From: Gammaproteobacteria bacterium
Lineage (GTDB): Bacteria > Pseudomonadota > Gammaproteobacteria > Steroidobacterales > Foliamicaceae
Assembly: GCA_965116895.1 (NCBI GenBank)
Contig: OZ220729.1
Location: forward strand, 2,344,857 to 2,408,856
Reading direction: 5' to 3'
Length of the DNA stretch: 64,000 nt
In this document: piece after piece, positions 113 through 25,058 of the stretch
Layout of the letters: each line of letters starts with the position of its first letter
How positions within the stretch are numbered: position 1 is the stretch's first letter
The notes under the pieces: model-generated
The model's input: the letters and a program-made list of their open reading frames with translations, nothing else
The model's database searches: none
What the model was told of the DNA's origin: nothing
Program-made: the position numbers and the translations under genes

Positions 113-160
113 CTGTTGACGATACACATTGCATGTGAGCTTCTTGTGTTCGTAGCCAAC
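113..160. repeat. Copy A of a ~45-bp conserved element (ctgTTGACgATACacATTgCATGTGAGctTCTTGTGTtcgTAGCCAac), directly after the LRR gene stop
   Basis: Aligned by eye to 2531..2575; about 37 identical positions plus one 3-nt indel. Confidence 0.6.
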
Positions 161-2490: not shown

Positions 2491-2530
2491 TTGAGGAACC
2501 TGCACAGTATGAGAAAAGATATGCGAGGCG

Positions 2531-2575
2531 CTATTGACTATACGAATTACATGTGAGTATCTTGTGTAGCCATCC
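2531..2575. repeat. Copy B of the ~45-bp conserved element, in the divergent intergenic region between the LRR gene and the kinase gene; contains TTGACT-17nt-(TGa)GTATCT, a possible promoter toward the kinase
   Basis: ctaTTGACtATACgaATTaCATGTGAGtaTCTTGTGTTAGCCAtc aligns with 113..160. The promoter reading is a hexamer match only. Confidence 0.5.
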
Positions 2576-2580
2576 ACTTT

Positions 2581-5924: not shown

Positions 5925-8153
<2,229 letters not shown>

Positions 8154-8307: not shown

Positions 8308-8341
8308 AAAAAAAGCGAGGCGGGCATGTAGCCCGCCTCGC
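8308..8341 (-). terminator. Intrinsic terminator of giant gene A (GCGAGGCGGGC-tacat-GCCCGCCTCGC followed by T7 on the minus strand)
   Basis: 11-bp perfect stem plus a run of 7 T on the transcribed strand, 24 nt after the stop. A near-identical copy is at 17695..17726. Confidence 0.8.
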
Positions 8342-8364
8342 TGCAACGTTAAGTTGCTGTTGGA

Positions 8365-11300: not shown

Positions 11301-13377
11301 CGCTGTCGTCGTCCATAACACTGAACGTAGCGACCCTGCGATCGCCTGAGTTTTCGGGATAATCGAATTCGTTCGGGGTCCCGAACCTCGGTTCATCGCT
11401 GTAGGCGACGGCGTTGGTGCCGTCCCGGGACAGGGCTACGGCCAGCTTGAAGGACGTGGTTACGGTTGCGCCGTCCGGGTCGGTCGCCGTGACGGTGAGC
11501 GTGTGAACACCGCGCACGGGCTCCCCACCCTTGGTGTTGGTGATCATGCCATCCTCGCTGATCTCCAGGAAGGCGGGCCCCCGCAGGGAATAGGTCAGAT
11601 CATCGCCATCGGGATCCCAGAAGGCCCCTTCGCCCGGCATATCGCCAGCTTCCTCCAGCTCGAATGTCAGCCACTCGCCCTTACTCACTTCGTCGGACTG
11701 CTGACCGGACTCGGCGGTGACCCACCAGTTGCCGATCGTGTTGGCTTTGGGCGCATCGTTTTCGTCCTTGATGACGATCGAGACGGTCTGGAACTCGACG
11801 TTACCCGTGAACTTAGTGCCACTGCTGTTCGTCGCGCCGTTCATGTCCACCGCGCGGATGGTGATGTCGACTACCCCGTCATTCGTTTCTTCATCCAGAG
11901 ACATCCCTGCCTTCAGTGCCAACCACGGGATGCCGGCGTCGTCGTACTTGACCTCGAAGCGGTCATCCAGTTGGGCGCTGGGCTTAATACGCTCGCTACT
12001 GACAGGGTTTCCTTTCAATATCTGGATTAGGTGCATGCCGTTTGGATGCATCTTGTGGTCCCTGTCGGTCACCCGGATCTCGCCGAACACCACGCCCGAG
12101 GCATCGTTCTCGTCCACGTCGGCTTCGACGGCGACTCTGCCATTACTGTCGATCAGGTCCACGTCCGTGATGTCGTCGTTGCCGTCGTCCACAATCACGT
12201 AGAAGCTGATCGGGTCCGATTCGGCACCATCGCTGTCGGTGGCGGTAAGGGACACCTTGTGGGCGGCGTCGCTTTCGGTACCGGTAACCGGCGGCGTGCC
12301 GGTGAAGATGCCTTGCGCCGTATCGTTGCCGTCGTCGTCTTCGCCGAATTCGACAGCGAACCTCAACCAGGAAGGCCCGCCGCTCAACTCGTAGCGCACG
12401 GCGCTCGCATCGCCCGCGTCCGGGTCGTTGAACAGCTTGAGCAGATCGATCGCGTTGGGCTTGATGGGCTCGCCGGACTCGGTCGTTATGGCATCGACCG
12501 TTCCGACCGCGACCGGGGCTTCGTTCACGTCCGTGACCATGACCGTTACGTCGGTGCTGGCAGTGTTGCCGGCGCTGTCCGTATAGGTGACGGTGACCGT
12601 GACTTCGCTGTCTTCCTCATGGTCGAGGCTGGCGTCGTCCGCCAGATGCAGCCACAGGCCGTTGGCGGGATCGAGAATGACCTGGAACTTGTCGGCTTGT
12701 TCGCCCGTAATCGATACGGCGGCCTTGCCGGCTTCGCCCTTGAGCATGTCCGCATCGGCGGCGTCCGGATCCATCACCTCGATCAGGGCCAGGGGCGGAA
12801 CGCCCTCGTCGCCCTTCATGGCGTTCTCGGCGATGGTCAGGCTCGATACCGGGCGGCCTTCCGTCGAACCCTCCGCATCGGGCACGGCTTCGCCGTCACG
12901 CACGTCGATGGAGGGGTCTTCGTTGACGTCGTTGACGGTGACGGTGACGGTGGCGGTGGCGGACTCGCCGTCGCCGCTGGCGGTAAGGGTGAGTTCGATC
13001 ATGCCGCCTTCGACGGCCTCGAAGTCGAGGCTCATGCCATCCTTCAGCTTCAGGTTGCCGTCGGCGACTTCGAAGTAGTCGTTATCAACCGTAACTTCGC
13101 TGGAGTTCTCGGTAGTGACTGATGCCACCATGACGCCCTCGTCGTTTTCGTCCACTGCCGAGGCTTCGCCGACCGTGATCGTCGCTGCCGGAGGCGGCGG
13201 CGGAGGTGGAGGCGGAGGCGGTGGAGGCGGAGGAGAAATTCCCCACTGATTTTGCGATCCGCCGTTCAGGCTATAAGGAGCTGATCTGACTAAGGAATGT
13301 TGGTTTTCCTGTTTCTGCCGATTTCTTGCTGAATCACTCGTTTCCGAGAACTTTGTAGTAGCCGAAGTGATACGCAA
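8365..13377 (-). CDS. Giant cadherin/dystroglycan-type repeat protein, copy A (1670 aa as drawn); no signal peptide, doubtful TTG start
   Basis: Collinear with copy B from GGSQ...poly-Pro onward. Repeats carry DVNEDP/DVNEAP/DENDAP linkers and F.DPD.D.LTY...P.WL...GTP units. The N-terminal 47 aa (MRITSATTKFSETSDS...) have no hydrophobic segment, and no SD precedes the TTG. Confidence 0.7.
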   Translation of the reverse strand: MRITSATTKFSETSDSARNRQKQENQHSLVRSAPYSLNGGSQNQWGISPPPPPPPPPPPPPPPAATITVGEASAVDENDEGVMVASVTTENSSEVTVDNDYFEVADGNLKLKDGMSLDFEAVEGGMIELTLTASGDGESATATVTVTVNDVNEDPSIDVRDGEAVPDAEGSTEGRPVSSLTIAENAMKGDEGVPPLALIEVMDPDAADADMLKGEAGKAAVSITGEQADKFQVILDPANGLWLHLADDASLDHEEDSEVTVTVTYTDSAGNTASTDVTVMVTDVNEAPVAVGTVDAITTESGEPIKPNAIDLLKLFNDPDAGDASAVRYELSGGPSWLRFAVEFGEDDDGNDTAQGIFTGTPPVTGTESDAAHKVSLTATDSDGAESDPISFYVIVDDGNDDITDVDLIDSNGRVAVEADVDENDASGVVFGEIRVTDRDHKMHPNGMHLIQILKGNPVSSERIKPSAQLDDRFEVKYDDAGIPWLALKAGMSLDEETNDGVVDITIRAVDMNGATNSSGTKFTGNVEFQTVSIVIKDENDAPKANTIGNWWVTAESGQQSDEVSKGEWLTFELEEAGDMPGEGAFWDPDGDDLTYSLRGPAFLEISEDGMITNTKGGEPVRGVHTLTVTATDPDGATVTTSFKLAVALSRDGTNAVAYSDEPRFGTPNEFDYPENSGDRRVATFSVMDDDSDLGHHPFALETVTITQIVVDFQDAGTDDLVIDVAAADSDDDYVSAFQLSQPRKSGDTWTYDLLVKDTNPATSGPSHDTTAILNHETINRVIVTITATDGVGATRTQDIRVVVDPVNEKPTAEDIGTANTHGPYGVNQSEGQKEVLYIKLEDIWSDPENDLNVRSFKADVDGPGIKILQGPDEWGDIDDDVTWNDPPGDQTAVVIGDDATPPALDDWVVIIEIDRTGRNDGQDDDISFTLMASDRRGATGSKTYKVPVTDENLNPTNAVSVSGSAREGATLRATFNDDRDPDLRGDAMPALVLYQWFRGDEANASDATTPFRQSTSNSYTLTQADVNKYITVKVKYYEVGADATTAGTTGQLVGFDTTSTTVLNQATTTRMVTDTPDKGAGSITVLADNNVLSVTDVNVRITDGDYSPALVPDTNLADLTVSWEMSDNGRGGWEPVDEGDDTETATLELDDGKGKYYRAVVSYDANGTRAGTETESIYSDAIQVSDVTDGATTAPTITGNPFPGGTLSVNVRDTSVQWQERIGTDWVDIPGATGSLTLTSAHAGDTVRALVSYRSTDDDNPGVTAIVATDGETIGGGTTGTGATPHAVDDHNIEISVDAPGHAPARTPPADANKAGHNLSHTEIVPLASLFQDPDSASLTYTVAADSASGLGTPTVTGTTYVFDGANSPGGVLVFEASTGKLTYNSDVYQGHDNSGTPADDGAGNVITLNITATDPDGNSSSSNSDTDAQTAAVNVRINVAPTGINFNNAADGTGTTAAAINIDELPGRAPPGGMFIARVDVQDQNSETHKFGTHTVTVDDDRFMITHTHTNAANGTRTDDDKDGSTWEVRLKPGAMLDYEVENADRDPTIVLTLTATDSEGLATPAPVKLTITVTDVTRANGDVTEPPAATPTDVPGLMDDETTDPDEREDDENGSSNDGDTDGGAPPPPPGGSLGGIIEDFVDNMDTFEQDLLEDFMLVIDDGLDIA
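13189..13233 (-). repeat. Run of 15 consecutive proline codons (CCN)15 in giant gene A
   Basis: Minus-strand codons cct ccg cct cca ccg cct ccg cct cca cct ccg ccg ccg cct ccg were read directly. Confidence 0.95.
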
Positions 13378-13458
13378 TAAAGCGCGTGAGGCGGCGCTCC
13401 GCTTCGTTCGCGCGCCCAGTCAACCGGAAATCTTGCAATAACCGAAGTGATACTCGAA

Positions 13459-14648
13459 TTCCACCTCGGTGAAAAATAGCATCGGCTATTTTCTACCAGA
13501 GTGGAAAATCGCCGTATAATGCTGCGGGTGCCCACCACCGACCGCTACCTCACAGACCAGGTTATTTCCGACCTGGACCGCAAGATGGTGTTTGTCGCCG
13601 GCCCCCGTCAGGTCGGAAAGACCACACTCGCTCTCAGCCTGCCCGGGGCAAGTGAAGGGTACCTGAACTGGGACATTGACGCGCACCGCGCACGCATCCT
13701 CAGAAGCGAACTGCCTCCGGGGGCGTTGTGGATATTCGACGAGATTCACAAGTACAGGCGCTGGCGAAACTATCTCAAGGGCCTGTACGACGGTCGCCCG
13801 CCAGGCCAGCGCATTCTTGTTACCGGCAGCGGGCGGCTGGACCTCTATCGGTTCGGCGGCGATTCGTTGCAGGGACGCTACCATCTGCTGCGTCTGCATC
13901 CGTTCTCGGCGGCGGAGCTCGGGCTGGACCGGCCCGCCATGCTCGAGAACCTTCTCAGGCTGGGAGGCTTTCCGGAACCCTGGCTGTCCGCCAGCGAAAC
14001 GGAATCCAGGCGCTGGTCCCGCGAGTACTCGTCGCGGCTCGTGCAGGAAGAGGTGGCCACACTGGAAAACATTCGGGATCTGGGCCAGCTGCAGTTGATG
14101 ATGCTGTCGCTGCCGGAGCGCGTCGGATCGACGCTCTCGATCAACGCGTTGCGCGAGGATCTGAACGTGAGCCACAAGACCGCCAGCGTATGGCTCGAAG
14201 TCCTGGAGCGCCTCTACGCGATCTTCCGGCTTGCTCCCTTCGGCTCGCCGCAGCTTCGGGCCCTGCGCAAGGACCGCAAGCATTATCACTTCGACTGGTC
14301 GGTCGTTCCCTCGCGCGGAGCGCGCTTCGAGAACCTGGTGGCCTGCCACCTGCTCAAATGGGTGCATTTCCGGCAGGACGCCGAGGGGCTGGACTTCGAA
14401 CTGCGGTATTTCCGGGACCGCGACGGCCGGGAAGTGGATTTCGTGGTGACGAACCGGGGCGCGCCCGTGCTGCTGGTCGAATGCAAGTGGTCGGACGCGG
14501 GCCTCGACCGCGGCCTCAAGTATCTCAAGTCCAGGTTCCCCGACGCCGAGGCCTGGCAGATCTCCGCTGCAGGCAGCAAGGACTACGCCTCCCCGCAGGG
14601 CATACGCGCGGCCCCGGCGCTCAAGTTGCTTTCCACTCTGGTCTAGCG
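13459..14648 (+). repeat. 1.19-kb direct repeat, copy 1 (ATPase gene plus 69 bp upstream)
   Basis: Aligns without net indels to 16501..17690 (constant offset 3042). Homology starts at ttccacctcggtgaaaaatagcatcgg and ends just after the stop codon. Confidence 0.9.
13528..14646 (+). CDS. AAA (AAA_14-like) ATPase with DUF4143-like middle region and PD-(D/E)xK-like C-terminus, copy 1
   Basis: Walker A GPRQVGKTT, Walker B-like LWIFDEIH, C-terminal VDFVV...LLVECKW. Start is set at the GTG shared with copy 2; the ORF track starts at 13501, and ATG 13519 is also in frame. Confidence 0.8.
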   Translation: MPTTDRYLTDQVISDLDRKMVFVAGPRQVGKTTLALSLPGASEGYLNWDIDAHRARILRSELPPGALWIFDEIHKYRRWRNYLKGLYDGRPPGQRILVTGSGRLDLYRFGGDSLQGRYHLLRLHPFSAAELGLDRPAMLENLLRLGGFPEPWLSASETESRRWSREYSSRLVQEEVATLENIRDLGQLQLMMLSLPERVGSTLSINALREDLNVSHKTASVWLEVLERLYAIFRLAPFGSPQLRALRKDRKHYHFDWSVVPSRGARFENLVACHLLKWVHFRQDAEGLDFELRYFRDRDGREVDFVVTNRGAPVLLVECKWSDAGLDRGLKYLKSRFPDAEAWQISAAGSKDYASPQGIRAAPALKLLSTLV

Positions 14649-14740
14649 GGCGGGACGCCGTGGGGGACATGCCCCCACTCCCAGGCCGCAGGCTTTACTG
14701 CGAAAACGTCAGTGAGTTGGCAGGTCGGCACGCACCAGTC

Positions 14741-14769
14741 TTGACTCATTTGCATACAAAAGGCAATAT
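14741..14769 (+). promoter_or_regulatory. Candidate sigma70 promoter for hipBA (TTGACT-17nt-CAATAT)
   Basis: Hexamers read directly in an AT-rich stretch about 45 nt upstream of the hipB ATG. Confidence 0.4.
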
Positions 14770-14810
14770 ATGGCCTATAAAGTTATATATCGGGTTTCAA
14801 CAGGCCAGAT

Positions 14811-15164
14811 ATGGATGTTCAATATTCAACGAATGCGCCGAGAGTGGCCTCTGAACTGGGCCGGCGCCTGGCGCAGCTGCGTCTTTCGAGAAATGTGACC
14901 CAAAAGATTCTGGCCCGCGAAGCCGGTATAGGATTGCGAACGCTTCGCCGGCTGGAAGCCGGGCAGCCTACGAGTCTTGACAGTTTCCTGCGCGTCGCAC
15001 TCGCGCTGGGACTTGGCGACGCCTTGCTGGCGGCTCTGCCCTCGCACGGAATACGGCCGATCGAGCGCGTGGAACGGCGCGGCGCAGAACGGCGCCGCGC
15101 CCGCCCAAAACACGCGGAAGCTTCGAACGCGCCCTGGACCTGGGACGACCATCAACGTGACTGA
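14811..15164 (+). CDS. hipB: XRE-family HTH antitoxin HipB
   Basis: LSRNVTQKILAREAGIGLRTLRRLEAG is a helix-turn-helix. It overlaps the start of the HipA-like gene by 8 nt. Confidence 0.8.
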   Translation: MDVQYSTNAPRVASELGRRLAQLRLSRNVTQKILAREAGIGLRTLRRLEAGQPTSLDSFLRVALALGLGDALLAALPSHGIRPIERVERRGAERRRARPKHAEASNAPWTWDDHQRD

Positions 15165-16458
15165 TGCCACCGTAAGACTGTGGGGACGGCGTATCGGTGC
15201 TGTGTCCTGGGATGCCGGGCGCGGCGTTGGCGTGTTCCAGCACGACCCCGCCTTCGCGGCAGCCGGGATAGAACTTGCCCCTTTTGCCATGCCGGCCCGT
15301 GAGGCGCCGTATGAGTTTCCGGCCTTGGGACGTGACGCGTTCAAGGGACTGCCCGGGCTGCTGGCGGACGCACTGCCGGACGACTTCGGCAACCGGCTGA
15401 TCAACGTCTGGCTCGCGACGACCGGACGGCGCATGGAGGATTTCAGTCCGGTCGACCGGCTCTGCTACATAGGTTCGCGCGGCATGGGCGCTCTCGAGTT
15501 CGAGCCCGCAATTGCGCGGAGCGGCAAGGATGGGGAAGTGGAAGTCGCGGAGCTGGTGGATCTGGCGAATCGCGTATTGAGGTCCCGAACGCAGCTTCAT
15601 GGCGCGTTGGACGGAATCGACGATCATGCCGCGCTCGAAGACATCCTCACCGTGGGAACATCGGCCGGCGGCGCCCGCGCCAAGGCTTTGCTGGCCTGTA
15701 ACCCCGGAACCGGAGAGTTCCGGTCCGGCCAGGTCGAGACGAAAAAGGGATTCGAGCACTGGATTCTCAAGTTTGACGGGGTCAGTAACAACCGCGATCG
15801 GGAACTTGCCGACCCGCAGGGCTACGGAAAGATCGAGTACGCCTATCACCGGATGGCGCAAGATGCCGGGATCGCGATGTCGGAGTGCCGGTTGTTCCAC
15901 GAAGGCGGCCGCAGCCATTTCATGACCCGCCGGTTCGACCGCGACGCGGAGGGCCGCAAGATCCACATGCAGTCACTCGGCGCGCTACGGCATTTCGACT
16001 ACTACCAGCCCGGCGCCTATGCCTACGAACAGGCAATGGAAACGATTCACCGGCTGGGGCTGGGAATGGCCGCGGTGGAACAGCAGTATCGGCGCACGGT
16101 GTTCAACATTGCGGCCCGCAACCAGGATGATCACGTGAAGAACATCTCGTTCTTGATGACACCCGACGGCAAGTGGACGCTGTCTCCGGCCTACGACGTT
16201 GCCTACTCCTACAATCCCGGCGGCTCCTGGACCGGCAAGCACCAGATGAGCGTTGTCGGCAAGCAGGACAATTTCGAGCGCAGCGACCTGCTGCAGTTCG
16301 CCCATTCATCCGGAATCAAGGCGGTGGCCGCAAACCGGATTACCAACGACGTGATCGCAGCGGTGGCGGACTGGCCACGGCACGCCAGGGACGTCGGCGT
16401 CCCGCAAGGCGACATTCGCCGGATCGGCGCAACACACAGAACCAAGGTACTGGCGTGA
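15157..16458 (+). CDS. hipA: HipA-family serine/threonine kinase toxin
   Basis: 433 aa from GTG 15157, in the frame of ORF 14977..16458. The catalytic-loop motif DDHVKNISF matches the HipA DxHxKN signature. The N-terminal coupling region is LWGRRIGAVSWD. Confidence 0.85.
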   Translation: MTDATVRLWGRRIGAVSWDAGRGVGVFQHDPAFAAAGIELAPFAMPAREAPYEFPALGRDAFKGLPGLLADALPDDFGNRLINVWLATTGRRMEDFSPVDRLCYIGSRGMGALEFEPAIARSGKDGEVEVAELVDLANRVLRSRTQLHGALDGIDDHAALEDILTVGTSAGGARAKALLACNPGTGEFRSGQVETKKGFEHWILKFDGVSNNRDRELADPQGYGKIEYAYHRMAQDAGIAMSECRLFHEGGRSHFMTRRFDRDAEGRKIHMQSLGALRHFDYYQPGAYAYEQAMETIHRLGLGMAAVEQQYRRTVFNIAARNQDDHVKNISFLMTPDGKWTLSPAYDVAYSYNPGGSWTGKHQMSVVGKQDNFERSDLLQFAHSSGIKAVAANRITNDVIAAVADWPRHARDVGVPQGDIRRIGATHRTKVLA

Positions 16459-16500
16459 AGACGCTGCCGATGCCGATCCAGCTACTGTGCATCGGCGTTT

Positions 16501-17690
16501 TTCCACCTCGGTGAAAAATAGCATCGGCAATTATCTACCGGAGTCGAATATTGCCGTATAATTCGGCGCGTGCCCACCACCGACCGCTACCTCACAGAAC
16601 AGGTTCTTGCCGACCTGGACCGCAAGATGGTGTTCGTGGCCGGCCCCCGGCAGGTGGGCAAGACCACCCTCGCGCTGAGCCTGCCCGAGGCGCAGGCAGG
16701 CTACCTGAACTGGGACATTGACGCGCACCGCGCGCGCATCCTCAGGAACGAACTGCCTCCGGGCGCGTTGTGGGTATTCGACGAGATTCACAAGTACAGA
16801 CGCTGGCGCAACTACCTCAAGGGCCTGTACGACGGCCGCCCGCCGGGCCAGCGCATTCTTGTTACCGGCAGCGGGCGGCTCGACCTCTACCGGTTCGGCG
16901 GCGATTCGTTGCAGGGTCGCTACCATCTGCTGCGCCTGCATCCGTTCTCGGCGGCGGAGCTCGGGCTGGACCAGCCCGCCATGCTCCAGGATCTTCTCCG
17001 GCTGGGAGGCTTTCCGGAGCCCTGGCTGACCGCCAGCGAAACGGAATCCAGGCGCTGGTCGCGCGAGTATTCGACGCGGCTTGTGCAGGAAGAGGTGGCC
17101 ACGCTGGAAAACATTCGCGATCTGGGTCAGCTGCAGCTGATGATGCTGTCGCTGCCGGAGCGCGTGGGATCGACGCTCTCGATCAACGCGCTGCGCGAGG
17201 ACCTCAACGTGAGCCACAAGACCGCCAGTGCATGGCTCGAAATCCTGGAGCGGCTGTACGCGATCTTCCGGCTTGCCCCGTTCGGCTCACCGCAGCTTCG
17301 GGCCCTGCGCAAGGACCGCAAGCACTATCACTTCGACTGGTCGGTCGTTCCCTCGCGCGGCGCGCGCTTCGAGAACCTGGTGGCCTGCCATCTGCTCAAG
17401 TGGGTGCATTTCCGGCAGGACGCCGAGGGGCTGGACTACGAACTGCGGTATTTCCGGGACCGCGACGGCCGGGAAGTGGATTTCGTCGTGACGAACCGGG
17501 GCGCGCCCGTGCTGCTGGTCGAATGCAAGTGGTCGGACGCGGACCTCGACCGCGGCCTCAAGTATCTCAAGTCCAGGTTTCCCGACGCCGAGGCCTGGCA
17601 GATTTCCGCCGCAGGCAGGAAAGACTACGCTTCGCCGCAGGGCATACGCGCGGCCCCGGCGCTGAAGTTGCTTTCGACTCTGGTCTAGGG
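16501..17690 (+). repeat. 1.19-kb direct repeat, copy 2
   Basis: See 13459..14648. Confidence 0.9.
16570..17688 (+). CDS. AAA/DUF4143-like ATPase with PD-(D/E)xK-like C-terminus, copy 2
   Basis: 372 aa, with about 18 amino-acid differences from copy 1 counted by eye. Same Walker A and ECK motifs. Confidence 0.85.
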   Translation: MPTTDRYLTEQVLADLDRKMVFVAGPRQVGKTTLALSLPEAQAGYLNWDIDAHRARILRNELPPGALWVFDEIHKYRRWRNYLKGLYDGRPPGQRILVTGSGRLDLYRFGGDSLQGRYHLLRLHPFSAAELGLDQPAMLQDLLRLGGFPEPWLTASETESRRWSREYSTRLVQEEVATLENIRDLGQLQLMMLSLPERVGSTLSINALREDLNVSHKTASAWLEILERLYAIFRLAPFGSPQLRALRKDRKHYHFDWSVVPSRGARFENLVACHLLKWVHFRQDAEGLDYELRYFRDRDGREVDFVVTNRGAPVLLVECKWSDADLDRGLKYLKSRFPDAEAWQISAAGRKDYASPQGIRAAPALKLLSTLV

Positions 17691-17694
17691 GCGC

Positions 17695-17726
17695 AAAAAA
17701 ACGAGGCGGGCATATAGCCCGCCTCG
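17695..17726 (-). terminator. Intrinsic terminator of giant gene B (CGAGGCGGGC-tatat-GCCCGCCTCG followed by T7)
   Basis: 10-bp stem plus T-run on the minus strand, 25 nt after the stop. Homologous to 8308..8341. Confidence 0.8.
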
Positions 17727-17751
17727 CTGCAACGTTAAGTTGCGGGGGTGG

Positions 17752-20700
17752 TTATGCGATCTCGATTCCGTCGTCGATCACGAGCATGAAGTCTTCGAGC
17801 AGATCCTGTTCGAAGGTGTCCATGTTGTCAACGAAGTCCTCGATGATTCCGCCGAGCGACATTCCCGGAGGCGGAGGCTGGGTGCCGCCGTCGGTGTCGG
17901 TGTCGTCGCCATCTACCACCTCGTTGTCGTCAGTACCGTCGTTGTCCCTCAGGCCCGGCACGTCGTTCGGCGTCGGCGTGACGTCGTCAGTCGTGTCGTT
18001 GTCGACCGTGATGGTAATTGTGATCGGCGTTGTCGGCGTGCTCAGGCCGCCACCGTCCGTGGCTGTCAGCGTGAGCACGATGGTGGGATTGCGATCGGCA
18101 TTTTCCGCCTCGTAGTCCAGCTTCGCGCCCGGCTTCAGGCGTATCTCCCAGGTGCTGCCATCCATGTCGGTATCCCTCGAATTGGGGAGCCCGGTGTACC
18201 CGGTGTGCGTGATCATGAACCGGTCGTCGCCCGAGAGCGTGACCTCATGGGTTCCGAACTCGTGCGAGCCCATGTTCTCGTCCTGAACATTCACATGGGC
18301 AATGAGCTGGCCGGCAGGCCTGGCGGCCGAGCCGGTCCCTGGGATCTCATCCACCATGAGATTGAAGGTGCCATTCGTTCCATCGCCGTTGGTTGCTGCG
18401 TCAACAGCACCATCGGAAGCAGCGAAGAAGATGTCGGTCGGAGCCACGTTGATCCGGACGTTCACATCGGCCGTGCCTGTGCGTGCGCCTTCGTCGGTGG
18501 CGGTTACGGTCAGCGTAATGATGTTGCCTGTGCCGTCGGTACGCGTGCCATCGTGGCCCTGGTAAACGTCACTGTTGAAGGTGAGCTTTCCGGTGCTCGC
18601 TTCAAACGTCAGCACACCACCATCGTTTTCGTAGACATACGTGCTGCCCGATCCGCTGTTGGTCGGGGAGTTCGTAACTGCCGTGACCGTGTAGGTCAAA
18701 CGCGCGCTGTCGGGATCCTGGAACAGGCTGGCCAGCGGAACGATCTCCTCGTGCGAGAGGTTGTGCCCCGCCTCGATGGCGGTGCCCCGGGCGGGGTGCC
18801 CGGGAGCGGCCACGCTGACTTCGATGTCGTGGTCGTCCACGCCGGTCGGAGTAGCGGTGCCCGCCGTGGTGCCGCCAATCGGCGTTCCGCCGTTGGCGGC
18901 AACCGCAACTACCGCCGTCACGCCCGGATTGTTGTCATCCGTACTGTGGTAGGAGACCAACGCCCGGATCACCTTGCCGGCATGCGCCGAGGTGACGTTC
19001 AGGCTGCCGGTGGCGCCCGGAATGTCCACCCAATCCGTACCGCGCTGCTCCTGCCATTGCGTCGATGTGTTGCGCACGTTGACGCTCAGCGTGCCGCCCG
19101 GGAAGGGGTTGCCGGTGATCGTGGGTGCGGTCCCTGCAGTGTCGCGCACGTCGGCGACCTGGATCGCATCGCTGTAGACGCTCTCCATCTCCTCGTCGGC
19201 AGCGTCCACGTCAGGATCATCGACCCCGTCCGCGTCGTAGCTCACGACTGCGCGGTACCACTTGCCTTTGCCGTCGTCCAGTTCCAGCGTTGACGTCTCG
19301 GTGTCACCCTCCTGGTCCACGGCTTCCCATCCGCCGCGTCCGTTGTCGGAGATCTCCCAGGAAACGGTTATACCGGTCAGGCCGCTGTCCGCCACCAGGC
19401 CGCCCGGGGTGGAATAATCCCCGTCGGTGATGCGCACATTGACATCCGTAACGCTCAATACATTGGCGTCGGCAAGGACCGTGACGCTTCCCACACCCTT
19501 GTCGGGCGTGTCGCTCACGGCCCGCAGGGTGGTGGCCTCGTTGTCGATCGTGGCCGTATCGAGTCCGACGAGCTGGTTACCGAAGACTTCGTAGTACTTC
19601 ACCTTCACGGTGATGTAACTGCCGACATCGGCCTGGGTCAGCTGGTAGGCACTGCTGGTGCCCTGACGGACCAGGGCCTCTCCGGTGCCGGCGTCGTCCT
19701 CCGCCCGGTACCACTGGTAGATCACCAGTGCGGGTGTGGTGGAGCCGCCGAGGTCGGGGTCCCTGTCGTCGTTGAAGCTGGCCCGCAACGTGGCGTCCTC
19801 ACGAGCGGCGCCACTTAGCGTGACGGCGTTCGTGGGATTCAGGTTCTGGTCGGTGACCGGCACCCTGTAGGTCATGGTGCCCGTTCCGCCGTCCCGGTCG
19901 GTCGCGTTGATCGTGAAGCTGCCCATGGCGCCCTGATCATTGTTCCTTCCGGTGCGGTCGAGCTCGATGATCAGCACCTGTTCGCCGTCGGCCGGAGCGT
20001 CCGCATCGTCGCCAATGATTACGGCGGTCCGATTGGCCTGGCCCGTATCGCCGATGTCAGTGTCGCCCCAGGTCACGTTCTCCAGATCGCCCCACTCGGC
20101 CGGGCCGTGCAGAATCGAGACCCAGGAGCCGCTAACCGACGCCGTGAAGGTCAAACGATCCGAAGCGTCCTCCTCATCGGTCCAGATGTCCTCCAGCTTG
20201 ATGTACAGGATTTCCTTCAGCGTCTCCGACTGGCCGACGCCGTAGTCTCCGGACCCAATATTGAAATCGGTTTCAACGGCTTGAGTAGCGGGGTTGTCGG
20301 CAATACCTTCAGCCATCGGCCGGTCGTTCACATCGTCAATATCGACTGCGATTTCTTCGGTGTAAGTGTCGGGCTCGGTGTCCGTGTCGGGCCCGTCTAT
20401 GCCGTCAGTGGCCGTGACCGTGACCGTGATCCGATTGATGGTCTCGTAGTCCAGAAGTTCCGTCGTGTCAACGCGCGGGCTCGGGTTCGTGTCCTTGACC
20501 AACAGGTCGTAGGTCCACGTGTTGCCGCTCTTCCTTGGCTCGGACAGCCGGAACGCCGATACGTAGTCCGCAGTCTGGTTAGCTGCCGTGACAGCAATCG
20601 TCTGGTCTGTCGTGCCGCTGTCCCGGAAATCGACCACAATTTGCGTAATGGTCACGGAGTCCAGCGCGAACGGGTGGTGGCCAAGGCTGTTGTCGTCGTC

Positions 20701-22782
20701 CCTGATCGTGAACGTGGCGACTACCTGATCGCCCGAATTTTCCTCGTAGTCGCGTTCGTTCGGGTTGCCGAACCTCGGCGCCTCGTTGTCGTTGTCGGCG
20801 GTCTCGTCGGTGCCGTCGCCGGACAGGGCCACTGCCAGATTGAAGGTAGCGGACGCCGATGCGCCGTCCGGGTCGGTGGCCGTGACGGTGAGGCGATGAA
20901 CGCCGCGCACGGGCAGTCCGCCCTTGGTGTTGGTGATCTCGCCGGTCCGCTCATTGATCTCCAGCCAGGAGGGACCCGACAAGGAGTAGGTGAGCGTATC
21001 GTTATCGGGATCGGTGAACGCCGGCTTGGCATCGTCCGTATCCTCGATGAAGAATCTCAGCCAGGCGCCTTTTTCCACGTCATCGGCCTGCTGACCGCCC
21101 TCGGCGGTGACCCACCAGTTGCCGATCGTGCCGGCCTTGGGCGCGTCGTTCTCGTTGTTGATTACGATCGAGACGGTCTGGAACTCGACGTTGCCCAGGA
21201 AAGCCGTTCCGCGGGGGTTCGTCGCGCCGTTCATGTCCACCGCACGGATGGTCACTTCGACGGCGCCGGGTGAGGTCCGATCCTCGAAATCGAGGGACTC
21301 GCCTTCCTTCAGCACCAGCCAGGGGATGCCCAGGTCGTCGTACTTGACTTCGAAGCGGTCATCCACCGGGGCGTTGGGAGCCTCGCTCCTGGAGTCCCCT
21401 TTCAGTATCTGGATCAGGTGCGTCCCGTTCGGATGCATGGCGTGGTCCTGGTCCGTCACCCGGATCTCGCCGAACACCACGCCCGAGTCGTCGTTCTCGT
21501 CCACGTCCGCTTCGACGGCCACGTTGCCGGCGTCGTCGATCAGGTCAACGTCGGTGATGGCGTCGTTGCCGTCGTCCACGATCACGTAGAAGCTCACGGA
21601 GCCTTCCTCGCCGCCGCTGTCGGTGGCGGTAAGGGTCACCATGTGAGCGGCGTCGCTGTCGGGGCCGGTGGTGGGCGGCGTGCCCGAGAAGATGCCCATC
21701 GTCGTATCGTTGCCGTCGTCGTCCTCGCCGAACTCGACGCTGAATGTCAGCCACGAAGGCCCGCCACTCATTTCGTAGCGCACGGCGTTGGAATCGCCGG
21801 CATCCGGATCGTTGAACAGCGCGAGCAGATCGATCGGGTTGGGCTTGATTTCCACGCCGGACTCGGTGGTTATGGGATCGACCATGCCGACCGCGACCGG
21901 GGGTTCGTTTACGTCATTGACCATGACCGTAACGGTCTGTTCGGCCGTGTTGCCGGCGCTGTCCGTATAGGTGACGGTGACCATGACCTCATCGTCGGCC
22001 TCGTGGTCGAGGCTGGCGCCTTCGGCCAGGTGCAACCACAGGCCGTTCTCGGGATCGAGGATCACGGCAAACTTGTCCGCTTGCTCGCCGGTAATCGAAG
22101 TGGCGGCCACGCCGGCATCGCCGGTGAGCATGTCCGCATCGGCGGCGTCCGGGTCCATCACCCTGATCAGGGCCAAAGGCGGAGGACCGCCGTCGCCCCG
22201 CATGGCGTTCTCGTCGACCGTCAGGTTCGAGATCACGCCCGGATGTCCGGGAACTTCTCCGCCCTCATCGCCGTCGAGTACTTCAATGGAAGGCGCTTCG
22301 TTGACGTCGTTGACGGTGACCGTCACCATGGCGGTGGCGGATTCGCCGTCGCCGCTGGCGGTAAGGGTAAGTTCGATCATTCCGCCTTCGACGTTTTCGA
22401 AGTCGAGGCTCATGCCGTCCTTGAGCTTCAGGTTGCCGTCGGCGACCTCGAAGTAGTCGTTGTCAACCGTAACTTCGCTGGCGTTTTCGGTGGTAACCAT
22501 AGCCACCATGGCGCCATCGTCGTTTTCGTCCACTGCCGAGGCTTCGCCCACCGTGATCGTCGCTGCCGGAGGCGGCGGCGGAGGGGGAGGCGGAGGCGGA
22601 GGAGGCGGAGGAGGCGGAGGTGGTGTGGGCCTTTGCGACCCACCGCCTCCGCAGGCATCCAGCGCGAGCGCCAGCGCGGGCAGAATGAGAATATCCGTGC
22701 GAGACGGATTTTCCCGGCGCCGGCGTATCGCCCTTTCAAGGCGCGCCTGCAAGAGTTGAATTACGGTTCCTGATTTAGACAT
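17752..22782 (-). CDS. Giant cadherin/dystroglycan-type repeat lipoprotein, copy B (1676 aa)
   Basis: ATG is preceded by AAGGAGG (22791..22797). Signal ILILPALALALDAC has a lipobox and is followed by 19 Pro. Cadherin-like linkers DVNEAP, DVNEPP, NENDAP and DVNDRP are present, and the protein ends in an acidic C-terminal tail. Confidence 0.85.
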   Translation of the reverse strand: MSKSGTVIQLLQARLERAIRRRRENPSRTDILILPALALALDACGGGGSQRPTPPPPPPPPPPPPPPPPPPPAATITVGEASAVDENDDGAMVAMVTTENASEVTVDNDYFEVADGNLKLKDGMSLDFENVEGGMIELTLTASGDGESATAMVTVTVNDVNEAPSIEVLDGDEGGEVPGHPGVISNLTVDENAMRGDGGPPPLALIRVMDPDAADADMLTGDAGVAATSITGEQADKFAVILDPENGLWLHLAEGASLDHEADDEVMVTVTYTDSAGNTAEQTVTVMVNDVNEPPVAVGMVDPITTESGVEIKPNPIDLLALFNDPDAGDSNAVRYEMSGGPSWLTFSVEFGEDDDGNDTTMGIFSGTPPTTGPDSDAAHMVTLTATDSGGEEGSVSFYVIVDDGNDAITDVDLIDDAGNVAVEADVDENDDSGVVFGEIRVTDQDHAMHPNGTHLIQILKGDSRSEAPNAPVDDRFEVKYDDLGIPWLVLKEGESLDFEDRTSPGAVEVTIRAVDMNGATNPRGTAFLGNVEFQTVSIVINNENDAPKAGTIGNWWVTAEGGQQADDVEKGAWLRFFIEDTDDAKPAFTDPDNDTLTYSLSGPSWLEINERTGEITNTKGGLPVRGVHRLTVTATDPDGASASATFNLAVALSGDGTDETADNDNEAPRFGNPNERDYEENSGDQVVATFTIRDDDNSLGHHPFALDSVTITQIVVDFRDSGTTDQTIAVTAANQTADYVSAFRLSEPRKSGNTWTYDLLVKDTNPSPRVDTTELLDYETINRITVTVTATDGIDGPDTDTEPDTYTEEIAVDIDDVNDRPMAEGIADNPATQAVETDFNIGSGDYGVGQSETLKEILYIKLEDIWTDEEDASDRLTFTASVSGSWVSILHGPAEWGDLENVTWGDTDIGDTGQANRTAVIIGDDADAPADGEQVLIIELDRTGRNNDQGAMGSFTINATDRDGGTGTMTYRVPVTDQNLNPTNAVTLSGAAREDATLRASFNDDRDPDLGGSTTPALVIYQWYRAEDDAGTGEALVRQGTSSAYQLTQADVGSYITVKVKYYEVFGNQLVGLDTATIDNEATTLRAVSDTPDKGVGSVTVLADANVLSVTDVNVRITDGDYSTPGGLVADSGLTGITVSWEISDNGRGGWEAVDQEGDTETSTLELDDGKGKWYRAVVSYDADGVDDPDVDAADEEMESVYSDAIQVADVRDTAGTAPTITGNPFPGGTLSVNVRNTSTQWQEQRGTDWVDIPGATGSLNVTSAHAGKVIRALVSYHSTDDNNPGVTAVVAVAANGGTPIGGTTAGTATPTGVDDHDIEVSVAAPGHPARGTAIEAGHNLSHEEIVPLASLFQDPDSARLTYTVTAVTNSPTNSGSGSTYVYENDGGVLTFEASTGKLTFNSDVYQGHDGTRTDGTGNIITLTVTATDEGARTGTADVNVRINVAPTDIFFAASDGAVDAATNGDGTNGTFNLMVDEIPGTGSAARPAGQLIAHVNVQDENMGSHEFGTHEVTLSGDDRFMITHTGYTGLPNSRDTDMDGSTWEIRLKPGAKLDYEAENADRNPTIVLTLTATDGGGLSTPTTPITITITVDNDTTDDVTPTPNDVPGLRDNDGTDDNEVVDGDDTDTDGGTQPPPPGMSLGGIIEDFVDNMDTFEQDLLEDFMLVIDDGIEIA
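22567..22623 (-). repeat. Run of 19 consecutive proline codons (CCN)19 in giant gene B
   Basis: Codons were read directly; one further Pro lies two codons upstream (P-T-P19). Confidence 0.95.
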
Positions 22783-22821
22783 GAGCCTGCCTCCTTACCG
22801 AGCAAGTTCAATTGGTTGAAA
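22628..22821 (-). repeat. 5' module of giant gene B (leader, SD, ATG, signal peptide, lipobox), repeat copy 1
   Basis: Aligns at constant offset 305 with 22933..23126. Roughly 9 of 10 positions are identical by eye. Confidence 0.85.
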
Positions 22822-22907
22822 AGGTAGTGATGGTTAGAGTGATAACCATACTGATAAACGTTTCAAATAATTCCGAAAAAAGCCTTATAAGTCAGTTTAT
22901 TAAGCAA

Positions 22908-23087
22908 TTAACTCCAATTCGGAGGAGGAGTCGGCCTTTGCGACCCGCCGCCTCCGCAGGCGTCCAGCGCGATCGCCAGCGCGGGCAGGATAAGAATATC
23001 CGCACGCGATGGGTTTTCCCGGCGCCGGCGTATCGCCCCTTCTAGGCGAGCCTGCAAGAGTTGAATTACGGTTCCTGACTTAGACAT
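22908..23087 (-). pseudogene. Orphan 5' fragment of a giant-adhesin gene (59 codons: signal peptide, lipobox, GGGGSQRPTPPP, then stop)
   Basis: Hand translation gives MSKSGTVIQLLQARLEGAIRRRRENPSRADILILPALAIALDACGGGGSQRPTPPPNWS*. It has the same SD (AAGGAGG) as gene B. It is below the ORF-track length cutoff. Confidence 0.75.
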
Positions 23088-23126
23088 GAGCCTGCCTCCT
23101 TACCGAGCAAGTTCAATTGGTTGAAA
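22933..23126 (-). repeat. 5' module, repeat copy 2 (orphan)
   Basis: See 22628..22821. Both copies end at the dyad TTCAAttggTTGAA. Confidence 0.85.
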
Positions 23127-23448
23127 TGTGGTCGAGCCCTCCCGGGCGGAATGACGCAATAGTATAACTCCGTGACCTGTCAAGCAAGCCATCGGGCGAA
23201 TTATAGGGCACACACCTTTCCGATGTATAGACGAATCTATAAGTGAATCGACACTTCCCCGGAACGGGGCCCCAAAATCGATCACACCGGTTTGCCGCTT
23301 CACCCGACTAACCGGCCGTGGCCTAGTGAGTGCTGCATTTTCCCCCCCGATCGCCGGATCTCCATAAGGAATTCCAGGATCATTCTGGTCTCGTTGGCAC
23401 GATTCTACACGAAAGAAAGCGCGCAAGTCATTCATTTTTTCAAAAGTT

Positions 23449-24492
23449 TCAGCCTGCCCGGAATCGCAGCACGTCGCCGTCGCGGACTTCGTAATCGCGC
23501 CCCTTGAGGGCGGGAAGGGCTTGCGGGGCGGCGCTGAAGGCCTCCCAGGGCGTGACTTCGGCGCGCACGAAGCGCTGCTGGAAATCGGTGTGTACGCGGC
23601 CCGCGGCGTGGTGCGCGGTGGCGCCGTTGGGGATCAGCCAGGCGCGGGCCTCGGACGGGCCCGCGGTGAAGAAGGTATTGAGGTTCAGGAGGGTGCGTAG
23701 CGCCTGCATGAAGCGCTGGAAGGTTTCGTGCGGAAGGCCGAGTCCCTGGCGCAGGTCCTGCTGCTCTTCTTGCGGCAGTGCGGCGAGCTCGGACTCGAGC
23801 TCGGCGGTGACGCGAACGGCGGGTTTGCCCTGTTGTGCGGCATATTCCTCGGCGAGGTCCGCCGGACCGCCCGTTGCGATGTGTTCTTCGGCCACGTTGA
23901 GCGCGTAGAGCGTGGGTAGTGCGGTGAGGAGTGGGAGGGCGGACGTCTCGTCGTTCGTGGAGGGCGGGACGCCCTCGCTCCCAAGGTGGTTGTGGAGCTC
24001 TTCGAGCTCTTCGACGCGCTTTTTCAGGTCGGGGTGGCCGGACTTGGCGCGGCGGCGGGCGGAGTCCAGCGCGCGCTCGACGGTTGCGAGGTCGGCCAGC
24101 GCCAGTTCGGTGTTGACGGTCTCGGCGTCATCGACCGGATCGACGGCGCCGGCGACGTGCGTGACGCGCCCGGATTCGAAGCAGCGCAGCACGTGCACCG
24201 CGGCGTCGGCCTCGCGCACCTGGGCCAGGAAGCGGTTGCCCAGGCCCTCGCCGCGCGACGCGCCCTTCACCAGGCCGGCCACGTCCACGAGCTCGAGCGT
24301 GGCCCGGACCTTGCGCTGCATCCCTGCGGCTTGCGCCACCGCATCCAGCCGCGGATCGGGGATGGGCACCCGCGCGACGTTCGGATCGATGGTGCAGAAG
24401 GGCCGGTTCTCGGTGGGGACTTCGGCGGCGGCCAGTGCGTTGAAGAGCGTGGACTTGCCGACGTTGGGCAGCCCGATGATCGCGGCCTTCAC
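23449..24492 (-). CDS. ychF: Ribosome-binding ATPase YchF
   Basis: VKAAIIGLPNVGKSTLFNAL (P-loop) from GTG 24492. C-terminal TGS-like end DGDVLRFRAG. The ORF-track N-terminal extension overlaps pth and is not used. Confidence 0.9.
   Translation of the reverse strand: MKAAIIGLPNVGKSTLFNALAAAEVPTENRPFCTIDPNVARVPIPDPRLDAVAQAAGMQRKVRATLELVDVAGLVKGASRGEGLGNRFLAQVREADAAVHVLRCFESGRVTHVAGAVDPVDDAETVNTELALADLATVERALDSARRRAKSGHPDLKKRVEELEELHNHLGSEGVPPSTNDETSALPLLTALPTLYALNVAEEHIATGGPADLAEEYAAQQGKPAVRVTAELESELAALPQEEQQDLRQGLGLPHETFQRFMQALRTLLNLNTFFTAGPSEARAWLIPNGATAHHAAGRVHTDFQQRFVRAEVTPWEAFSAAPQALPALKGRDYEVRDGDVLRFRAG
23960..23982. repeat. REP-like GC-rich hairpin element GAGGGCG-gga-CGCCCTC-GCTCCC, located inside the ychF CDS
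   Basis: 23-nt match to 39490..39512 with one mismatch. Related copies are at 48814..48856, 53251..53297 and 61762..61782. Confidence 0.7.
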
Positions 24493-25058
24493 TCGGGGGG
24501 TTCGGTGTGGAGCTGGGTCATGGCGGCCTGCATTCCTTTTATATATAGGGTGTCGAAGGCCTGCAGGGCGTCCTGCAGGGCTTCTTCGATGACCTGGCTC
24601 TCGGCGGCCGTGGGTCTGGACAGTACATAAGGAGTAACGCGGTCCTTGTCGCCGGGGTGCCCTACTCCCAGGCGCAGGCGCTGGAAGTCGGGGCCGCAAT
24701 GCCGGATCACGTCGCGCAGGCCGTTATGGCCGCCGTGGCCGCCGCCTTCCTTGAGCCGGGCGGCGCCGGGCGGCAGGTCGAGGTCGTCGTGGACGATGAG
24801 GGCTGCGGACGGCGGCAGCTTGAAGTAGTCGAGGACGCCGCGCACCACCTGGCCGCTGGAGTTCATCCAGGCCAGCGGCTTGATCAGCATCACGCGCGCG
24901 CCTTCGATGTCGATGCGGGCCGCGGCGGCCTGGGCGCGCTTGTCGCCGGAGAACGGCGGCGCCTCGTAGCGCTGGGCCAGCAGGTCGATGAATCGAAAAC
25001 CGGCGTTGTGCCGGTCGTGAGCGTGATCGGGGCCCGGATTGCCGAGGCCGAAGACCAG
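24489..25058 (-). CDS. pth: Peptidyl-tRNA hydrolase (start uncertain)
   Basis: GGHGGHNGLRD and HDDLDLPPG lie in ORF 24489..24893. The conserved N-terminus LVFGLGNPGPDHAHDRHNAGF continues in frame upstream with no ATG, GTG or TTG, so the start is provisionally placed at CTG 25058. Confidence 0.7.
   Translation of the reverse strand: MVFGLGNPGPDHAHDRHNAGFRFIDLLAQRYEAPPFSGDKRAQAAAARIDIEGARVMLIKPLAWMNSSGQVVRGVLDYFKLPPSAALIVHDDLDLPPGAARLKEGGGHGGHNGLRDVIRHCGPDFQRLRLGVGHPGDKDRVTPYVLSRPTAAESQVIEEALQDALQAFDTLYIKGMQAAMTQLHTEPPE

Follow-up and report, generated by a model that had tools for sequence, protein, structure and literature searches.

A truncated signal-peptide module upstream of a giant cadherin-repeat gene in a Gammaproteobacterium: a putative ychF-adjacent expression site and its headless cassettes

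The DNA analysed here (hereafter the window) is a stretch of 64,000 nt of contig OZ220729.1 (assembly GCA_965116895.1) from a Gammaproteobacteria bacterium of the family Foliamicaceae. It contains two related genes for giant adhesins, one bearing an N-terminal expression module with its Shine-Dalgarno sequence (SD), start codon and signal peptide (gene B) and the other a headless copy (gene A). A second copy of the module, truncated and devoid of a large gene (the orphan), is located between ychF and gene B. We give an even chance to the explanation that the orphan is the module nearest to the promoter in a conserved expression site, adjacent to ychF, for giant cadherin-repeat surface proteins, that the orphan and the spacer following it form a cis-acting 5' control region, and that the headless cassettes are archived donors. 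Judging from the sequence comparisons described below, the orphan would be an inherited upstream open reading frame (ORF), probably kept by selection, and the same comparisons show gene A to be something different, namely a headless cassette bounded by a poly-proline (poly-Pro)/N-terminal block at one end and a tail/terminator block at the other.

Self-comparison of the window revealed a direct repeat of 207 nt (22615-22821 and 22920-23126, offset 305) with 92% identity, the two module copies differing at 17 of 207 positions. Its core is the 194-bp repeat (22933..23126, same offset) that had been reported in an earlier note on this DNA and is real. All features of the adhesin locus given below are on the minus strand, unless a plus sign is given, and on that strand ychF (23449-24699) is followed, in this order, by non-coding DNA, a leader containing AGGAGG, a 59-codon ORF, a spacer, a second leader with SD and ATG, and gene B. 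Copy 1 of the repeat (22920-23126), the native module of the expression site, comprises a 39-nt leader with SD, an ATG at 23087, a signal-peptide-like segment, the Cys of an LDAC motif, GGGGSQRPT and three Pro codons. The orphan ORF that starts in it (22908-23087, 59 codons, MSKSGTVIQLLQARLEGAIRRRRENPSRADILILPALAIALDACGGGGSQRPTPPPNWS and a stop) has its own SD AGGAGG at 23095-23100 and ends with PTPPPNWS, the stop codon being placed just inside the poly-Pro tract. Next comes an AT-rich spacer of 98-99 nt (22822-22919) with a core CTTAT..G.T.T.G-TTATCACT, in which TTATCACT occupies 22838-22845, and a dyad at 22830-22849. Copy 2 (22615-22821) has the same 39-nt leader, with the SD at 22790-22796 and the ATG at 22782, and belongs to gene B (17752-22782). 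The product of this gene has 1676 aa and consists of the N-terminal module, 19 Pro residues (22567-22623), cadherin/He_PIG repeats (Pfam matches Cadherin, E=5e-26 in three stretches, and He_PIG, E=2.6e-13) and a conserved acidic C-terminal tail. Direct reading of the module sequence shows a positively charged n-region, a hydrophobic core of 11 residues and ...LALALDAC-GGGGS, which does not vary. The earlier description of this locus as an orphan start module, an AT-rich spacer, and two modules plus two bodies in the same orientation with A headless is thus correct.

We compared the window with twelve loci labelled L001 to L012. Among them L001 is MAG (metagenome-assembled genome) JAPOWV010000080.1, L001 and L002 are GenBank MAGs labelled Gammaproteobacteria and the others, apart from L007 and L008, are ENA assemblies with ERZ accessions. 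A sponge origin was checked for L007 and L008 only, and these derive from metagenomes of Aplysina aerophoba (MKWU) and Sarcotragus foetidus (PMC5099237), respectively. A promoter followed by leader and module was found only at the ychF-linked site of the window, L001 and L006-L011 and, in L003 and L005, at a site linked to cas genes; the window holds one expression site.

The tandem of orphan and attached module is also present elsewhere. Locus L007, found by scanning metagenomes with the invariant SD-ATG stretch, contains a promoter, a module cut after PTPP (...PTPPL and a stop), a spacer of ~172 nt, a second leader and module, and then the gene. When the 59-aa orphan was searched against a protein collection, only short proteins (56-78 aa) matched. 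These homologous short ORFs form six clusters with 29 sequences, ~25 of them genuine short ORFs with the same end point, and they fall into two junction classes, one of 59 aa ending in PTPPP[HN]WS that includes the window and one of 56 aa ending in PTPPL, with a few variants besides. Three of the orphans (L009, L010 and L011) were fetched together with their surroundings and all of them are located downstream of ychF, with a second SD, ATG and module 119-204 nt past the stop, attached to a large cadherin-type gene. Hence, the ychF-linked tandem occurs in the window and in four other assemblies (L007, L009, L010, L011) that differ in their downstream content. The adhesin bodies of these tandem-bearing lineages are only ~30-50% identical to gene B.

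The spacers of the five tandem loci are homologous (alignment A3) and the core given above is invariant in them; the layout therefore has a single and old origin and was inherited. L007, L010 and L011 have a further segment of ~88 nt, missing from the spacers of the window and L009, with which a 16-bp hairpin is complete. In this hairpin one change is compensatory in L010 (GACTTTG/CAAAGTC to GATTTTG/CAAAATC), and a mismatch has been repaired in L011. Its arms are ATCACTTCTGACTTTG and CAAAGTCAAAAGTGAT (L007 5133-5176, L010 8238-8281, L011 8239-8282). Genes of the Y1_Tnp family (RAYT/IS200-like) are found a few kb upstream in L009 and L011, so that an origin of the hairpin similar to that of repetitive extragenic palindromic (REP) elements is possible. 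No BLAST or local-alignment match to the spacer was found elsewhere in the window or in the single-module loci. A derivation from the element found upstream of headless cassettes (see below) was discarded, since only a TATCACT(TC) core is common to both and the local alignment has p values of 0.44-0.75.

The earlier note had proposed a rearrangement and had named an identical arrangement in relatives as the observation that would count against it; relatives do carry the same layout. A simple tandem duplication was also rejected, since copy 1 runs into the spacer and copy 2 into the poly-Pro tract, two unrelated sequences, and since the A-to-B offset (~9.38 kb) is not that of the two ATPase genes located between A and B (3.04 kb). 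The comparison shows instead an ancestral joining, in which a complete unit (short flank, leader, module, poly-Pro and body) was placed behind a resident module, 2-3 codons into its poly-Pro tract. The product was a promoter, an ORF of 56-59 codons coding for a signal peptide only, a spacer, a second SD and ATG with the full module, and the gene, later inherited by several lineages. Both classes of orphan are cut 2-3 codons from the start of the poly-Pro tract.

The orphan resembles a coding sequence under constraint. The ratio of non-synonymous to synonymous substitutions (dN/dS) between orphans is 0.13 (dN 0.059, dS 0.448, five DNA copies), indistinguishable from the 0.10 of the gene-attached modules. 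The SD and the ATG of the orphan are invariant across the five tandem loci, and the sampled short ORFs all keep the frame over ~55 common codons. The duplicated module itself includes RPTPP, a motif that is nearly invariant in the orphans (there is one PTPAL). The two module copies of one genome share 97% identity in L009, 94% in L010 and 86-90% in L011, L007 and the window. In the three divergent pairs (window, L007 and L011) dS reaches 0.39-0.47 and dN only 0.03-0.07. Purifying selection seems to act on the orphan peptide as well as on the spacer core, and it is on these grounds that we take the pair as a cis-acting 5' control region for the adhesin. In L007 it is the SD of the gene-attached module that is mutated (AAGTAGG for AAGGAGG, 5040-5052), and that of the orphan keeps the consensus.

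Transcription most likely starts upstream of the pair. The non-coding region between ychF and the module (23130-23414) is conserved, with 75-95% identity to L001, L003, L007, L008, L009 and L011, and contains the promoter-like elements TATACA-18-TATAAT (23229-23200) as well as a conserved CTTGCTTGACA...TTATACTATTGCG (~23157-23190). An Rfam search of the region upstream of the module gave no meaningful match. In a sigma-70 scan promoter-like sites, TATACA-18-TATAAT among them, were detected only upstream of the orphan, and no terminator-like site was found in the spacer (22822-22919), hence the orphan and gene B are most likely co-transcribed from the upstream promoter. The orphan would then act as an upstream ORF on the transcript of gene B and, together with the spacer, would have a regulatory role. 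The elements TTGAAA-16-TATCAC, the dyad ATGGTTA-N6-TAACCAT (22830-22849) and TTGCTTGACA-N11-TATACT, which the earlier note had listed, are all present as written and none is among the sites reported by the scan. As a promoter within the spacer, TTGAAA-16-TATCAC was discarded because it fails the scan and its spacing is not kept in L009. A further candidate mechanism, in which the CCUCC of the orphan Pro codons would sequester the second SD until freed by a ribosome stalled on PPP, was not supported by folding: RNA folds from the orphan end to the second SD (window, L009 and L007; minimum free energy and centroid) were no better than those of shuffled sequences (z -1.0 to -1.7).

Conservation is high in the non-coding block that separates ychF from the predicted promoters (window 23230-23414, L001 9720-9900, L009 9745-9880). 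Across 7 loci its hairpin GGCCGGTTAGTCGGGTGAAGCGGCAAACCGG has two compensatory pairs; the block also includes GCCCCGTTCCGGGG, which is invariant, and has no match in Rfam. It could be a small RNA, the 3' end of ychF or the site of a regulator.

Several observations weigh against the explanation that we prefer. The orphan is dispensable, being missing at the ychF site of L001 (a close relative), L006 and L008, which have a single module there, and also in the cas-linked L003 and L005. The residues past PTPP and the position of the stop vary by class (PNWS, PHWS, L, F, FYG, SC), and the predicted folds of the window, L009 and L007 leave the second SD unpaired with the orphan end. The lipobox LDAC, with Asp at -2, is non-canonical compared with [LVI][ASTVI][GAS]C, which makes the export route uncertain and the label of lipoprotein provisional. 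The low dN/dS of the orphans could come from exchange with functional attached modules, as suggested by the 97% identity of the L009 copies, by the near equality of the window orphan and the attached copy of L001, and by the 96% identity of the gene B module to that of L008. The features of the orphan fit a translated and constrained peptide and also fit repeated exchange with attached modules. Furthermore, all the evidence for recombination is comparative.

The alternative that best survives, although we consider it unlikely, is that the orphan is a neutral scar, i.e. the non-functional remnant of one ancient and imprecise cassette replacement, kept by descent and sometimes overwritten by gene conversion. 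The orphan is missing from L001, L006 and L008 with the site otherwise visibly unchanged, the copies within a genome can be homogenised (L009 and L010), the sequence after PTPP varies to the point that L011 has lost its stop (giving an ORF of 78 aa), and folding revealed no RNA structure linking the orphan to the second SD, all as this alternative would have it. However, two direct repeats of ~200 nt with 100-170 nt between them should easily be lost by deletion, and yet the layout persists in lineages with bodies as divergent as those described above. A scar does not easily explain why SD, ATG and open frame are kept in all the sampled orphans with such a low dN/dS, nor the invariant core of the spacer and the compensatory change of its hairpin. 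In addition, the dS values of the window, L007 and L011 pairs indicate that these copies have not been homogenised recently, and yet their dN is very low.

Returning to the proposed expression site, its other component would be the headless cassettes. Gene A (8365-13233) consists of 15 Pro codons (13189-13233) followed by a body and tail of 1607 codons, without start codon, SD or signal peptide. Its protein is ~66% identical to that of gene B and the sequence 5' of the poly-Pro tract is non-homologous. Headless copies are the rule in this family, and seven were checked at the DNA level: gene A, L001 G2, one in L002 (at 12999), three in L004 (at 3682, 9911 and 21116) and a partial copy in L003. 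They have an in-frame stop or a non-conserved, start-less sequence directly 5' of a poly-Pro run of 11-19 codons. Their bodies are open over ~1600 codons with dN/dS values of 0.40-0.48, and the other frames carry 34-64 stops; for gene A against gene B the dN/dS is 0.44 and the other two frames have 52-54 stops. The poly-Pro run and the next ten codons of the headless copies are in frame and ~90% identical to the expressed copies. Upstream of gene A there is an inter-cassette element (13234-13456) with two direct copies of GTATCACTTCGGCTAYTACAA (13353-13373 and 13433-13453) around a GC-rich dyad, followed by ACATTCC..ATCAG..CTTATAGCC..GGGGAATTTCT. This element of ~200 nt is conserved upstream of the headless cassettes of L001, L002, L003 and L004 (alignment A1), its 21-nt motif GTATCACTTCGGCTAYTACAA is found nowhere else in the window, and no sigma-70-like promoter was found in any of the inter-cassette elements. 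The headless cassettes would thus be silent.

All the genes of the family, expressed or headless, end with a conserved acidic tail (...GGIIEDFVDNMDTFEQDLLEDFMLVIDDGI[D/E]IA) and a strong 12-bp GC-rich terminator. The terminator after the gene B tail means that gene A cannot be read through from B. Two blocks of homology flank the variable bodies: a 5' block made of the poly-Pro tract and the first ~100 codons, with 86-91% identity among the closest copies, and a 3' block made of tail and terminator, with 78-90% identity. In gene B the 3' block (17691-17860) includes the last ~36 codons and an intrinsic terminator (17700-17728), and in gene A (8309-8473) the tail and an intrinsic terminator (8314-8342). 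The identity profiles between pairs of copies are strongly mosaic, ranging from 40 to 100% in 50-codon windows. Two cassettes of L004 share 1,556 identical nt, from 887 nt upstream of the poly-Pro tract to 669 nt into the body, after which they diverge abruptly. The identical tract, which reflects either a recent gene conversion or an assembly effect, is inverted (9024-10579 on the plus strand and 20448-22003 on the minus strand) and spans an ORF of 162 aa, the inter-cassette element, the poly-Pro tract and ~200 codons. An array of three cassettes (L012) is located elsewhere in the genome that holds the expression site L003.

In L002 two isolated 3' blocks (5940-6098 and 6640-6798), each with the last 33 codons and the terminator region and 88% identical to that of the window, follow a full-length gene. 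They are orphans of the 3' end, as the truncated module is of the 5' end. The acidic C-terminal tail, of ~40 aa (17755-17860 and 8368-8473 in the window, and present in all members), is far better conserved than the body and comes in at least three types (...DFMLVIDDGIDIA, ...DYLLTIDDGLDIV and ...MDAMMMSTLDDGLF); different tail types are paired with the same N-terminal blocks. No named family for it was found in Pfam or NCBIfam. The poly-Pro tracts (22567-22623 and 13189-13233) are (CCN)15-19 repeats, so that the opposite strand is a long GGN repeat, and may be break-prone initiators of recombination.

L001 has flanks ~95% identical to the window and the same upstream region. Its module is 99% identical to the window orphan and joins a 1700-aa gene in frame at the poly-Pro tract; the body of this gene has ~70% nucleotide identity to gene B. 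That is, the sequence of L001 is of the orphan type as far as the CCTCCTCC codons, from where on it encodes another body. The module of gene B is 96% identical to that of L008 and 92% to the window orphan. Judged by this fusion, L001 looks like the junction of the orphan with another body that the earlier note had predicted. Either the tandem collapsed in L001 or the window gained it by recombination with a tandem-bearing strain. Look-ups of the exact proteins of gene B, the orphan ORF and gene A in other assemblies, for alternative junctions, gave no match.

Under the proposed explanation the headless cassettes would be archived, and homologous recombination or gene conversion through the 5' and 3' blocks would replace the expressed body. 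Recombination at the Pro codons of the orphan, or between the 207-nt repeats, would collapse the tandem to the single-module form of L001. We infer that gene conversion between the copies is active. The idea, already in the earlier note, that recombination at the poly-Pro tract swaps bodies agrees in outline with the L001 fusion, the mosaic bodies and the conserved 5' and 3' blocks, and it does so for the gene family as a whole. We consider possible, with odds somewhat below even, that this is true recombinational surface variation of ~1600-aa cadherin-like proteins, with one or few expression sites, many headless cassettes, exchange via the poly-Pro tract and the tail/terminator, and a gating of the adhesin by the orphan upstream ORF and the structured spacer.

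A different view, to which we give a rather low probability, is that there is no silent archive at all. The headless genes would be independently expressed paralogues, translated from internal GTG or ATG codons past the poly-Pro tract and exported via the acidic C-terminal tail (for example by type I secretion), the module-bearing copy would be a cell-anchored variant and the orphan would have no relation to switching. Gene callers do start most of the homologues just past the poly-Pro tract, only 4 of the 120 best homologues of gene B being called with the module, a figure skewed by gene calling. The tail ...DDG[IL][DE]I[AV] is conserved across the family and resembles, we assume, the acidic-then-hydrophobic C-termini of some substrates of type I secretion systems (T1SS). 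The headless copies are under coding constraint, and a T1SS-like ABC transporter with an AprE-like membrane fusion protein is found 8 kb from the L012 cassette array, which also counts against the explanation that we prefer. On the other hand, no SD precedes the candidate internal starts (by direct reading), and there is no sigma-70-like promoter upstream. Gene callers also gave a wrong start to L001 G1, which was called from an internal ATG though its DNA carries the module in frame. The Sec-type N-terminal signal of the expressed copies speaks against a pathway with a C-terminal signal, no RTX or T1SS family matched gene B or its last 150 aa (Pfam, NCBIfam), and the Pfam scan of window ORFs revealed no T1SS genes. 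The conservation in frame of the poly-Pro run and the ten codons after it, described above, also goes against independent internal starts.

The reading that the orphan was the original head of gene A, split off by a recent insertion or duplication of ~9.7 kb through the poly-Pro tract, which is in outline one of those in the earlier note, now looks very improbable. The orphan does end where A starts, at the start of a poly-Pro run and in the same orientation. The claim that both also share the preceding GGSQ segment is weak, as it depends on a match of 12 out of 14 nt (GGCGG.TCGCAAA) just upstream of the A poly-Pro tract (p~0.02 by shuffling) that is absent in other cassettes. The junction of orphan, spacer and module is common to four other assemblies that differ downstream (L007, L009, L010 and L011), so that it was inherited and is older than the arrangement of the window. 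The upstream flank of A is the inter-cassette element found at many headless cassettes of the family, and in L001 a headless cassette follows hipBA although there is no orphan. The A-to-B offset (~9.38 kb) and that of the ATPase genes located between them (3.04 kb) do not fit one duplication, and the gene B module is nearer to L008 than to the orphan. Finally, an assembly artefact, in which the orphan would be a spurious duplication from merged strain variants, could be suspected in a metagenome-type assembly with copies resembling the modules of two lineages (99% L001, 96% L008), and is practically negligible given the 17 differences in 207 positions, the unique spacer homologous to those of four independent assemblies with the same layout from other samples, and the dozens of orphan ORFs called in unrelated assemblies.

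By analogy, the nearest known logic to the proposed expression site and its cassettes is that of the Vmp proteins of relapsing-fever Borrelia, with pilE/pilS and vlsE as looser parallels. The Vmp system is outlined as one expression site with archived promoterless vmp genes and upstream and downstream homology sequences (PMC12510640, PMC3974855). Similarly, our loci have a single promoter-bearing site or few of them, the archived copies have whole-gene length, are open and are devoid of a detectable promoter, a conserved 5' block (poly-Pro and ~100 codons) and a 3' block (tail and terminator) flank a variable body, extra isolated 3' blocks are found (here in L002) and the N-terminus of the product has a lipoprotein-like signal. 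Unlike Vmp, the locus is chromosomal and belongs to sponge-associated Gammaproteobacteria rather than to a linear plasmid of a spirochaete, the bodies are cadherin-repeat proteins of ~1600 aa, start codon and signal peptide are missing as well from the archived copies, the expression module is preceded by a truncated duplicate of itself, and switching would be deduced here by comparing sequences. With Neisseria pilE/pilS and B. burgdorferi vlsE/vls our loci share an expressed gene accompanied by 5'-truncated, presumably silent copies with mosaic relationships, and a repetitive tract at the boundary of recombination. G-rich initiators are discussed for pilE and vlsE (PMC3585125), and the GGN complement of the poly-Pro tract may be a lead in that direction only. 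The cassettes here, in contrast, are full-length bodies and not short segments, the hosts are not vertebrates, and neither a G-quadruplex (G4) element nor dedicated recombination genes were identified at our loci.

The orphan itself recalls the export-monitoring arrest peptides of the pairs SecM-secA, VemP-secDF2 and MifM-yidC2, in which an upstream ORF encodes an export signal; the orphan likewise ends soon after a Pro-rich RPTPP[P] and is co-oriented just upstream of the main gene. Unlike them, the downstream gene is cargo and not export machinery, the residues past PTPP are not conserved, no stem sequestering the SD is predicted, and the upstream ORF is a truncated duplicate of the N-terminus of the main gene. 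The adhesins could also be compared to LapA, as both are giant, repetitive Ig/cadherin-like proteins of Gammaproteobacteria with an acidic C-terminus. A PAAT/PAAV motif right after the N-terminal module and poly-Pro tract resembles the LapG site, whose consensus we take to be [T/A/P]AA[G/V]. The N-terminus, however, is a Sec/lipoprotein-like signal and not a folded retention domain, RTX repeats are missing, and no T1SS, LapG or LapD genes were found in the window.

Sponge symbionts are rich in eukaryote-like adhesion domains, and to our knowledge arrangements of an expression site with a cassette archive have so far been associated with vertebrate pathogens. Our literature search retrieved no description of an expression-site/cassette system, or of such an upstream ORF, in sponge symbionts and, if the reading is true, no system of this kind would have been described before in a mutualistic marine symbiont, as far as that search went. 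A cassette archive for giant cadherin-like proteins would let the symbionts change their surface identity inside a phagocytic, filter-feeding host, evading recognition by host or phage or shifting partner specificity. The truncated module is a concrete and testable element, consisting of a signal-peptide ORF of 56-59 codons and a spacer whose core TTATCACT is invariant. Switching in natural populations could easily be looked for by PCR (polymerase chain reaction) or long reads aimed at the 305-nt tandem, at the poly-Pro boundary or at the tail/terminator block.

Between the two adhesin genes of the window, and on the plus strand (13501-17688), are an AAA_14/DUF4143 ATPase (13501-14646), hipB (14811-15164), hipA (to 16458) and a second AAA_14/DUF4143 ATPase (16570-17688). 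The two ATPase paralogues (13459-14648 and 16452-17688) flank hipBA (14811-16458), have ~89% mutual identity over a repeat of 300 nt (D2), and are each ~92% identical to the ATPase of L001. Toxin-antitoxin or ATPase genes are also found in the inter-cassette spacers of L001 (two ATPases, hipBA, MntA-like), L004 (hipBA) and L012 (PemK), and the hipBA insertion in L004 splits the inter-cassette element. The L012 array adjoins a phage-type integrase and a GAF-PAS-HisKA-REC-Trans_reg_C hybrid (L012 1-2141 and 6292-9734), with the same architecture as the gene at 2581-4935 of the window. The remaining genes of the window are those of a core chromosome (rpoBC, fusA, the ribosomal protein operon, secY, an RND efflux operon, L25, pth and ychF), and a eukaryote-like leucine-rich-repeat protein of 902 aa (160-2868, minus strand) is encoded a few kb from the adhesin locus.

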